From the IMG/VR virus record IMGVR_UViG_2713896778_000030: a stretch of 4,253 bases of DNA. One strand, written 5' to 3'. This document shows, piece by piece, positions 98 through 3,274 of this stretch (the stretch's first letter is position 1; each line of letters begins with the position of its first letter). The position numbers and the translations under genes were made by a program. The notes under the pieces were generated by a model. That model ran no database searches. It had not been told where the DNA came from and saw only the letters and a program-made list of their open reading frames with translations. Origin of the DNA: a virus. Its lineage: Duplodnaviria > Heunggongvirae > Uroviricota > Caudoviricetes.

Positions 98-335
98 CTG
101 CTTCTTTGCCGATCCCGGGATGCCTTCCATTCTGATGTTTGACTTCGCCCACTGAGAAACCCTCTGTTTCCCCTTAACGCCGGGGTAGCGGAACAAAAAC
201 CTGCTGCATAGTTATTAAAGTTGAACCCTGCCGTCATGTTCATACGCCTCGGGCTGGCTACTTAACCCCTGACCACTGCCGGGTAACTCGAAGTATTTCC
301 CTGCGTTCTGTGGGGCGGGGTGGGTTGGTATTTTT

Positions 336-363
336 AGTTTAATAAACATTAAACTTAAGTCAA
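336..363 (-). promoter_or_regulatory. Leftward PL-like promoter (-35 TTGACT, 16-nt spacer, -10 TAAACT on the minus strand)
   Basis: The reverse complement of 358-363 (agtcaa) is TTGACT and of 336-341 (agttta) is TAAACT. These are the same two hexamers as the rightward promoter at 1351-1380. An operator-like palindrome covers the spacer and -10. Confidence 0.4.
337..354. promoter_or_regulatory. Operator candidate OL: 18-bp palindrome GTTTAAT-AAAC-ATTAAAC
   Basis: The 7-bp arms GTTTAAT and ATTAAAC are exact reverse complements around a 4-bp spacer AAAC. It has the same architecture and spacer as the site at 1362-1379. Confidence 0.5.
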
Positions 364-376
364 GTAAAAACTAAAC
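359..376. promoter_or_regulatory. Degenerate second operator-like site ending in ACTAAAC
   Basis: gtcaagt-aaaa-ACTAAAC: the right arm is the conserved heptamer and the left arm matches the consensus at about 5 of 7 positions. The following CTAAACCG-N-GG (371-381) recurs at 1393-1403. Confidence 0.3.
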
Positions 377-386
377 CGCGGGACAT

Positions 387-419
387 AACAAACACAACGC
401 TTTTGATAAAGTCGTTGCG
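387..419 (-). terminator. Weak candidate intrinsic terminator downstream of the toxin gene
   Basis: On the minus strand, cgcaacg (rc of 413-419) pairs with cgttgtg (rc of 393-399), giving 7 bp including one G-U, with a 13-nt loop, followed by TTTGTT (rc of 387-392). The stem is short and the U tract is interrupted. Confidence 0.25.
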
Positions 420-447
420 GTTGTTATGTTTCTATTGGTAGTGAAAG

Positions 448-726
448 TTAGGGAAACTGGCGTCTTGCGTGGATCACGTTTACTACTTCAACGCTTGATG
501 TTGTTACGCGGTATAGAATTATATAGTTAGGGTGGGCTACAATCTCACGCAAGCCAGGTACTCTGTCGCTTGGTGGGTATAAATACGGATGTTCGGATAA
601 CGGCAGCACACAACCCCTTAATCGCTGCCATAAGCGTTCAGCCGCATCTATGTCGAAACGAGCAATATAACTAGTTATATCATCTAGGTCGGTATCTGCG
701 CTTTCAAGCCATAACACGGGTAACAT
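448..726 (-). CDS. parE2: ParE-family type II toxin (RelE/ParE fold), 92 aa
   Basis: Minus-strand ORF with ATG at 726-724 and TAA at 450-448. Protein begins MLPVLWLESADTDLDDITSYIARFD and ends VVNVIHARRQFP; length and N-terminal pattern fit ParE toxins. The start is 1 nt after the antitoxin stop (TAA-a-ATG), with a GGAG Shine-Dalgarno (rc of 739-742) inside the antitoxin 3' end. The symbol is recalled from the three-component paaR-paaA-parE systems of E. coli O157:H7; paralog 1 versus 2 cannot be resolved from memory. Confidence 0.75.
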   Translation of the reverse strand: MLPVLWLESADTDLDDITSYIARFDIDAAERLWQRLRGCVLPLSEHPYLYPPSDRVPGLREIVAHPNYIILYRVTTSSVEVVNVIHARRQFP

Positions 727-727
727 T

Positions 728-919
728 TTACTGCTTGCTCCGTTCCTTGCGCATCTTAGCAAAGCGTTCTGCCATTCTGCGCTCAACTTCGTCATGGGGA
801 ATTGCTGGGCGCGGATCTGCAAGGCTCGTTGCTACTTTCGCACGCAGCCATTCGTTGTAACTGTTTTCTTGTTCAATGGTTTCAAATTCAGAAACCATTG
901 GTGAAAGGGCTCTATTCAT
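728..919 (-). CDS. paaA2: Small antitoxin partner of ParE (PaaA-like), 63 aa
   Basis: Minus-strand ORF with ATG 919-917 preceded by GGAGGA (rc of 923-928) and TAA at 730-728. Protein MNRALSPMVSEFETIEQENSYNEWLRAKVA...KMRKERSKQ is highly charged, as expected for a small disordered antitoxin. It sits immediately upstream of and coupled to the ParE gene. The 63-aa length matches my recollection of PaaA2. Confidence 0.65.
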   Translation of the reverse strand: MNRALSPMVSEFETIEQENSYNEWLRAKVATSLADPRPAIPHDEVERRMAERFAKMRKERSKQ

Positions 920-939: not shown

Positions 940-1311
940 TCAGGCGCGGCGGCATTTTTGCGCCGCAATCCATCTCGCTATGAGATCTTCCATTGATTCT
1001 TTTTTCTGCTTTAACTCGCTGATTATCTGGCGTTGCTCATCCTCAGGGAAGGCTGAAAAAATCTGCAATAATTCCAGTTGATTAGACGTTAACCCTGCAT
1101 GTGGTGGAGAAACCCCCGGTTGTTCTGCGTATTCCGCATCCAGATACCCTTCCGGCATCCCGTATGTTTGCTCTATTCTTCTGGCAGCCTTTTCTCCAAA
1201 CGAGGCTCTCCCACTCATTAGTTGAGATAGGTAGCTCTTCTCTTTGGGTGGCAGAGTTTTATCTTTAAACCACTCCTTGAGACGTAAACGGCGAATTTCT
1301 TTTTTTTGCAT
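940..1311 (-). CDS. paaR2: HTH transcriptional regulator (PaaR-like); putative CI-type prophage repressor, 123 aa
   Basis: Minus-strand ORF with ATG 1311-1309 and TGA 942-940. Protein starts MQKKEIRRLRLKEWFKDK and carries an HTH with recognition-helix-like segment KSYLSQLMSGRASFGEKAARRIEQ. It is first in the operon with the antitoxin and toxin and divergent from a cro-like gene. There is no Shine-Dalgarno; a -10-like hexamer sits 6 nt upstream of the ATG. The upstream in-frame ATG at 1374 would lie inside the divergent promoter region. Confidence 0.65.
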   Translation of the reverse strand: MQKKEIRRLRLKEWFKDKTLPPKEKSYLSQLMSGRASFGEKAARRIEQTYGMPEGYLDAEYAEQPGVSPPHAGLTSNQLELLQIFSAFPEDEQRQIISELKQKKESMEDLIARWIAAQKCRRA

Positions 1312-1408: not shown

Positions 1409-1711
1409 ATGACATTAAAAGAGTTTATTAAATCATTAAGGGTTGGTGATGCTAAGAAATTCGCGGCCAGACTTGGTGTATCGCCATCTTACTTATCGCA
1501 AATGGCGTCTGGACGAACAGCTATATCTCCAACCCGCGCCCTTATGATCGAATCTGCGACGGAAGGCCAAGTAAGTAGGGCGGAGCTACGACCTCATGAT
1601 TGGGAGCTTATTTGGCCTGAGTATGCGAGCGGCATTCGTTTGGGGCAAACACATGTAGTTCATGCTGAAGGTGATTGTAGTGCATGCTTATCTGATGGAG
1701 TTGATTCATGA
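1409..1711 (+). CDS. Cro/YdaS-like HTH DNA-binding protein, 100 aa
   Basis: ATG 1409 preceded by AGGAAGG (1401-1407). HTH segment AKKFAARLGVSPSYLSQMASGRTAISPTRALMIESAT resembles the YdaS/Cro family. It is divergent from the repressor gene. The stop TGA 1709-1711 overlaps the next ATG (ATGA). Confidence 0.65.
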   Translation: MTLKEFIKSLRVGDAKKFAARLGVSPSYLSQMASGRTAISPTRALMIESATEGQVSRAELRPHDWELIWPEYASGIRLGQTHVVHAEGDCSACLSDGVDS

Positions 1712-3224: not shown

Positions 3225-3274
3225 NNNNNNNNNNNNNNNNNNNNNNNNNNNNNNNNNNNNNNNNNNNNNNNNNN
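3225..3274. other. Gap (50 N) removing the 5' end of the following gene
   Basis: AGGAGG (3214-3219) lies 5 nt before the N run, and an open reading frame resumes at the first base after it (3275). No duplicated flank is visible here. Confidence 0.7.

Follow-up and report, generated by a model that had tools for sequence, protein, structure and literature searches.

The question raised by the locus at 336–381 is whether this immunity region carries, to the left of its toxin gene, a second operator/promoter copy comparable with the lambda OL/PL, as the original prediction proposed, and what such a copy would control. The window, i.e., the whole stretch of 4,253 nucleotides analysed here, corresponds to the immunity region of an E. 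coli lambdoid prophage of the CP-933P/Sp12 type. CP-933P is a cryptic prophage of E. coli O157:H7 EDL933, and it is called Sp12 in the Sakai strain; the source of the window is a near-identical copy of this prophage and not EDL933 itself. According to the list of open reading frames (ORFs) and Pfam, paaR2, paaA2 and parE2 lie on the minus strand, and ydaS and ydaT lie on the plus strand, followed by a replication gene. The parE2 toxin gene (448–726, minus strand) is identified by Pfam ParE_toxin (1.9e-16) and by genome annotation, and the paaA2 antitoxin gene (728–919, minus strand) by Pfam PaaA2 (1e-19). The leaderless paaR2 gene (940–1311, minus strand) encodes the CI-analogue repressor acting at OR and OL, a protein of 123 aa starting with MQKKE, the start of which is known from N-terminal sequencing (Jurenas et al., mBio 2021, PMC8630535). 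The ydaS gene (1409–1711, plus strand; Pfam YdaS_toxin/HTH_3) encodes the Cro analogue, which is also a repressor of PL according to the reporter result of Jurenas et al.

Chromosomes of E. coli O121 and other STEC strains match bases 1–1420 of the window at 100%, phage Evi matches them at 98.5% identity, and about 595 of 5426 complete E. coli genomes contain at least 80% of these bases. An O157:H7 genome differs from the window by four substitutions within 1–1810 (200, 1112, 1357 and 1594), none of which falls in 330–447. The difference at 1112 alters one PaaR2 residue, and that at 1357 (C in the window, T in O157:H7) lies in the PR spacer directly after the -35 hexamer. Runs of N are found at 1811–1860 and 3225–3274. 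The former has an identical 15-base sequence, AAGCGTATTTCGAGC, on both sides, which suggests a scaffolding gap with overlapping contig ends rather than a true interruption of ydaT; ydaT is intact in the annotated O121 genome whose sequence matches bases 1–1420 at 100%.

The element itself is composed of a minus-strand promoter and two operators that overlap it. Operator OL1 (337–354, GTTTAATAAACATTAAAC) reads GTTTAAT-AAAC-ATTAAAC, with GTTTA-N8-TAAAC as its core. It was originally described as a perfect 18-bp palindrome; the coordinates are right and the inverted 7-bp arms are perfect, but the 4-bp core AAAC is asymmetric, and 14 of the 18 positions are symmetric. In a repeat search, the symmetry reaches 11-nt arms at 91% (333–343/348–358). 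The distance from the parE2 stop (448) to OL1 is 94 bp, close to the 100 bp first estimated. The degenerate neighbour predicted at 359–376 (GTCAAGTAAAAACTAAAC) is found as operator OL2, one half of which is a good half-site, ACTAAAC, while the other half is the -35 hexamer of the promoter. The promoter scan agrees with the predicted minus-strand promoter and with the identity of its hexamers to those at 1351–1380: TTGACT-16-TAAACT is located at 363 to 336 on the minus strand, and TTGACT-18-TAAACT at 1351–1380 on the plus strand, where it is PR, so that the hexamers are the same and the spacers are 16 and 18 nt, respectively. The -35 hexamer of PL occupies 358–363 and the -10 hexamer 336–341, both on the minus strand; the latter consists of the last five bases of OL1 plus a T, and OL1 spans both the PL spacer and the -10. 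It counts against this promoter that TAAACT agrees with the consensus at four of six positions. Because of the promoter geometry, transcription is predicted to start at about 329 on the minus strand (A at 329, range 327–331), 7 nt after the -10. On the other side of paaR2, the OR region (1323–1398) contains operators at 1323–1340, 1362–1379 and 1381–1398, PR (TTGACT at 1351–1356, TAAACT at 1375–1380) and PRM, and has been covered by footprints (Jurenas et al., 2021, PMC8630535).

The duplicated tail next to OL2 and its OR counterpart is also present as predicted (CTAAACCGCGG at 371–381 and CTAAACCGAGG at 1393–1403, sharing CTAAACCG-N-GG). It is found in none of the related loci described below and was rejected as a meaningful element; the extra CCG-N-GG is probably coincidental or specific to CP-933P, as far as alignment of the loci can tell. 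The number of convincing operators at OL is two on the present evidence, whereas three have been reported for CP-933P (Jurenas et al., 2021, PMC8630535). The candidate for a third at about 381–398 is weak, with roughly 9/14 matches to the repeat family in a hand alignment, and neither a half-site survey nor a weight matrix yields a convincing operator beyond the two. Three half-sites at a spacing of about 24 nt occur in three relatives (L011, L013 and L023). Another operator-like match (1422–1440, 14.4 bits, AGTTTATTAAATCATTAAG on the plus strand) lies downstream of PR within the first codons of ydaS.

The operator pattern at OL is beyond chance, and in the window the motif is confined to OL and OR. 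The half-site AYTAAAC occurs seven times versus 1.19 expected, always within 337–376 or 1334–1398, and a count of seven was reached by one of 200 shuffles. The repeat search brings together a 14-nt family at 341–354, 363–376, 1327–1340, 1366–1379 and 1385–1398, and aligns 337–355 with 1362–1380 at 89%. A 19-nt weight matrix trained on operators of other genera, the window being excluded, gives 22.1 bits to 336–354 and 17.0 bits to 358–376, and all remaining matches above 15 bits are in OR; in 200 shuffles, the best match averaged 8.6 bits and was at most 18.0 bits.

The element at 336–381 has in fact been known as PL933P/OL since 2021. The octameric state of PaaR2 in solution, like that of lambda CI, prompted a search of CP-933P for a lambda-like PL/OL, and the region found was named PL933P with three operators, OL1-3, and was seen to have the same hexamers as PR933P (Jurenas et al., 2021, PMC8630535). 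In the same study, 18-bp inverted repeats with the half-site consensus GTTTAGTAA were described, and repression of a PL933P-gfp fusion was about 100-fold with either PaaR2, the CI analogue, or YdaS, the Cro analogue (PMC8630535). Transcription starts of PR933P and PRM933P were mapped by 5'-RACE, PaaR2 and YdaS footprints were obtained on the 97-bp paaR2-ydaS intergenic region, and 5'-RACE, EMSA and footprinting were limited to PR and PRM (PMC8630535). The two cloning primers of their Table S3, F-PL-SacI and R-PL-BamHI, match the window exactly at 427–447 and 330–351, respectively; therefore, the fragment that was tested corresponds to window 330–447, with the whole element, OL1 included, inside it. 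An O157:H7 chromosome in which all eight of the published primers checked are present shows no difference from the window over these 118 bp. PL933P of CP-933P is thus the same element as that at 336–381, with the same -35 and -10 as PR933P and the same cloned fragment. Since the reporter fragment extends no further than 330, which is only six bases beyond the -10, the core of the active promoter must lie at or above 330, which fits the proposed hexamers. A limited literature search found no later work on PaaR2 binding at OL.

The same arrangement is found outside E. coli. A scan of one genome per species gave 27 loci with PaaR2 homologues (43–76% identity), from Xenorhabdus, Photorhabdus, Yersinia, Morganella, Raoultella, Enterobacter, Erwinia, Massilia, Mycoavidus and other genera, most of them with a divergent YdaS-like gene. 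Their repressor-cro intergenic regions are strongly conserved around GTTTA-N8-TAAAC sites. Downstream of the repressor gene, GTTTA-N8-TAAAC occurs in 22 of the 27 loci (20 at 10/10 and two at 9/10); many of these 22 loci are closely related, with 14 distinct operators among them, although 22 of the 23 56-nt modules, the window included, are distinct. Chance would give about 0.25 sites at 9/10 or better per locus, and the cro-side flank of the related loci has no site at 10/10 apart from OR. The conservation extends to the promoter: all 22 distinct modules have a T after the operator, 21 of the 23 aligned PL modules, the window included, read TAAACT at the -10, and a -35 of the form TT[GT]AC[TAG] is placed 16–18 nt from the -10. 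An exact GTTTA half-site is also found 22–24 nt upstream of the OL1-type site in 15 of 23 loci, and PR of the same related loci is built alike, with its -10 derived from an operator half-site. OL is absent within the 2.5 kb fetched from L015, L020, L021 and L028, and the L025 contig is too short for assessment. The lambda-like second copy envisaged at the outset is upheld both by this module in 22 of 27 loci and by the PL933P reporter on an identical fragment (PMC8630535).

In the relatives, OR and OL are separated by about 0.5 to 2.4 kb. From the repressor gene to OL, the interval in L003-L029 measures about 100 to 1900 bp and is either without genes or filled with varied cargo, such as a DUF4236 protein in L022, an Arc/RHH protein in L029 and uncharacterised ORFs in L017 and L023. 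Neither PaaA2 nor ParE2 is present in any of the 27 related loci. The OL module, present in relatives without the toxin-antitoxin (TA) cassette, therefore predates the insertion of this cassette. From this comparison, the PL/OL module is an ancestral and maintained part of this immunity type, and paaA2-parE2 is an insertion confined to the CP-933P type, placed as cargo after the repressor gene and before OL. In two Yersinia loci (L017 2501–3133 and L027 2501–3169), a PaaR2-type N-terminal DNA-binding domain is fused to Peptidase_S24, and these loci have the same GTTTA-N8-TAAAC operators at OR and OL. No S24 autocleavage domain was detected in PaaR2 by Pfam, and its C-terminal half is of a non-cleavable type with a weak match to the C-terminus of DicA. 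One operator-promoter design would seem to be common to repressors of many genera that retain the PaaR2-type DNA-binding domain, whereas the C-terminal halves of these repressors differ, S24 self-cleaving in some and of the PaaR2 type in others.

Between the parE2 stop and OL, repeat search and folding reveal a long hairpin, its arms measuring 22 nt and its loop 3 nt (383–429, minus strand). The minus-strand RNA of 383–429 has a folding energy of -24 kcal/mol (z = -4.3; no equally stable fold in 200 shuffles), and UUUAGUUUUU comes after it. This hairpin is likely the terminator of the paaR2-paaA2-parE2 transcript, a function suggested by the predicted fold, and it would shield the PL operon from PRM read-through. 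A plus-strand promoter-like match, TTGATA-16-TATGTT with an upstream TG (403–430), lies inside the hairpin.

Downstream of the predicted start, the PL leader (about 167–331, minus strand) is common to prophages of other immunity types, and in Rac the DNA upstream of ydaG matches it at 87% identity. The homology to the Rac leftward leader (L031 4466–4620, K-12) begins at about 325–331, which in both prophages lies just a few bases beyond the -10. Rac has, at the corresponding position, its own TTGACA-17-TATAGT flanked by ATTAGGC-type repeats, a site that, by its sequence, resembles a PL/OL of Rac. Lambdoid mosaicism leads one to expect a module boundary where the transcript is predicted to start, and this boundary indirectly supports a start near 329. 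The leader RNA (329 to 150) folds no more stably than shuffled sequences (z = +1.16), and a structured leader or riboswitch was dropped on that ground. Rfam searching of the whole window at E <= 1 gave two chance microRNA-like matches only, with nothing relevant in 1–460.

The original prediction also pointed to the DNA beyond position 1 as the place to look for early leftward genes or an antiterminator. The former are present: in complete genomes, ydfC, dicF, dicB, kil, an exonuclease gene (exo), xis and int follow to the left, all on the minus strand, and they are 93–97% identical to the ydfC-dicF-dicB region of Qin. The latter was not found, as neither an N-like antiterminator (small minus-strand ORFs in 53–349; Pfam, NCBIfam) nor a boxA-type nut was detected. 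A search for boxA (CGCTCTTA, one mismatch allowed) gave no minus-strand match in 1–330, with the total count at chance level by this simple consensus test, and does not support a lambda-type nutL in the leader. N is not used by all lambdoid phages. The DicF small RNA gene (L001 7263–7314; Rfam RF00039, 74 bits) is about 0.7 kb to the left of window position 1, between ydfC and dicB and on the same strand as PL. Both ydfC and dicB are pseudogenes in the O121 genome and intact in the O157:H7 strain TR01. A leftward transcript from PL is plausible, and a single transcript may run across all of the leftward genes.

The coding content just after the leader is less clear-cut. A 44-aa ORF (215–349) was rejected as a gene since it begins upstream of the predicted transcription start, and a 54-aa ORF (79–243) was rejected since its frame is not conserved with Rac. 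Just downstream of the PL leader, two ORFs overlap in antisense. One is a minus-strand ORF of 118 aa (start at window 152; L001 7796–8152), which takes the ydaG position of Rac with a shared Shine-Dalgarno sequence and is annotated in phage Evi; the other is a plus-strand ORF of 68 aa for a CxxC zinc-ribbon protein (L001 7811–8017; NCBIfam ECs_2282 family, 57 bits), which is annotated in RefSeq and converges on PL. The tblastn identities of their homologues (94–98.5%) are too alike to choose between the two. Given a converging plus-strand ECs_2282 gene to the left of the leader, it is not certain that transcription from PL reads through to dicF and dicB. A perfect 11-bp inverted repeat (64–98, GCAATGGCGCT-N13-AGCGCCATTGC, with TGCTTCTTTG next on the plus strand) is located in this leader/ORF region, and it may terminate transcription of the plus-strand ECs_2282 gene or bind a protein.

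The region thus resembles lambda in several respects. Like lambda OL/PL, the element at 336–381 is separated from OR by the repressor operon; operators of OR specificity overlap its promoter, which both the CI and Cro analogues repress (here known from the reporter, PMC8630535); cargo lies between the repressor gene and OL, rexAB in lambda and paaA2-parE2 here; and the repressor has been reported to be octameric. On the other hand, the CP-933P-type operators have no sequence similarity to lambda operators, two of them are clear here in contrast to three in lambda, the -10 in CP-933P is made from an operator half-site, PaaR2 is without the S24 autocleavage domain, neither an N gene nor a boxA-type nutL was detected in the leader, and OL and OR are about 1 kb apart as compared with 2.4 kb in lambda. 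Rac (racR, followed by ydaG-ydaF-kilR and others) shares the leader (87% at 169–331), and Qin (dicA, followed by ydfABC-dicF-dicB) shares the genes further to the left (93–97%). Both differ from the present prophage in immunity specificity, Rac having ATTAGGC-type repeats and RacR and Qin having DicA, and the homology stops at the promoter.

Taken together, the element at 336–381 is best explained, with a probability of about 90%, as the left operator-promoter OL/PL (PL933P) of a CP-933P/Sp12-type prophage, subject to classical repression by occlusion, with its -10 and -35 embedded in OL1 and OL2. A minus-strand sigma-70 promoter (-35 at 363–358, -10 at 341–336, start at about 329), directed away from paaR2-paaA2-parE2, would produce a transcript with a leader of about 175 nt followed by ydfC, dicF, dicB, kil, the exonuclease gene, xis and int. 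OL1 would provide the -10 and the outer half of OL2 would be common with the -35, such that PaaR2 or YdaS bound there would exclude RNA polymerase; octameric PaaR2 may, in addition, loop cooperatively between OL and OR.

This looping leads to a different emphasis, in which OL would be mainly a distal anchor: octameric PaaR2 would bridge OL and OR over about 1 kb and tighten repression of PR and PRM, with control of PL being secondary. The octamer in solution, like that of lambda CI (PMC8630535), and the retention of operators at both ends in relatives, where some 0.5 to 2.4 kb lie between OR and OL, speak for such a role, which is plausible, compatible with the OL/PL reading and does not exclude it. 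A pure anchor, however, would have no need for the -35, the spacer and the T completing the -10, all of which are conserved with the operator, and the cloned fragment is an active promoter (PMC8630535), which makes it rather unlikely that anchoring is the main role.

The other possibilities are far less probable. The activity and repression of the reporter might come from another promoter inside 330–447 and not from TTGACT-16-TAAACT, considering that the fragment is AT-rich and that start mapping by Jurenas et al. was limited to PR and PRM. The fragment, however, has a single promoter-like site on the minus strand, the match at 403–430 being on the plus strand, opposite to gfp, and the promoter geometry kept in relatives indicates the same hexamers; such a second promoter is very improbable. 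Slightly more improbable still is a non-functional relic, either a partial duplication of OR that arose with insertion of the TA cassette or a recombination scar. The tail that OL and OR have in common, CTAAACCG-N-GG, might hint at the copying of a segment, and the absence of the TA genes from all 27 related loci marks them as an insertion; relatives that have no TA cassette nevertheless possess the module, which lies nearer to or farther from their repressor genes and is accompanied by other cargo, conservation of the tail is lacking, and the promoter is active and regulated (PMC8630535). That the element is a chance resemblance in AT-rich intergenic DNA is hardly credible: the half-sites are indeed short and AT-rich, and one of 200 shuffles did reach seven AYTAAAC, but all matches in the window fall into two clusters of 40–65 bp at the expected places, an independent weight matrix puts OL1 above every shuffle, and a syntenic site exists in 22 loci.

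As left operator-promoter of this prophage, PL/OL matters for silencing of the early left genes, including those for the division inhibitors DicB and Kil, DicF, and the recombination/excision genes, and it bears on the enclosure of the ParE2 toxin-antitoxin pair within the immunity circuit. This role was already proposed and reporter-tested in 2021 (PMC8630535), and the additions made here are modest: the design is conserved well beyond E. coli, it is older than the TA insertion, S24 and non-S24 repressors share a single type of operator, and the mosaic joint with the Rac leader falls where the transcript is predicted to begin. It is tentatively conceivable, with the balance somewhat against it, that, among the several dicF-dicB-kil operons in enterohaemorrhagic E. 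coli, one has promoters of the PL933P type at its head, with a bistable PaaR2/YdaS switch deciding cell by cell on DicF and the division inhibitors. If the switch does head such an operon, the immunity state of a cryptic prophage would be tied to the physiology of its host.
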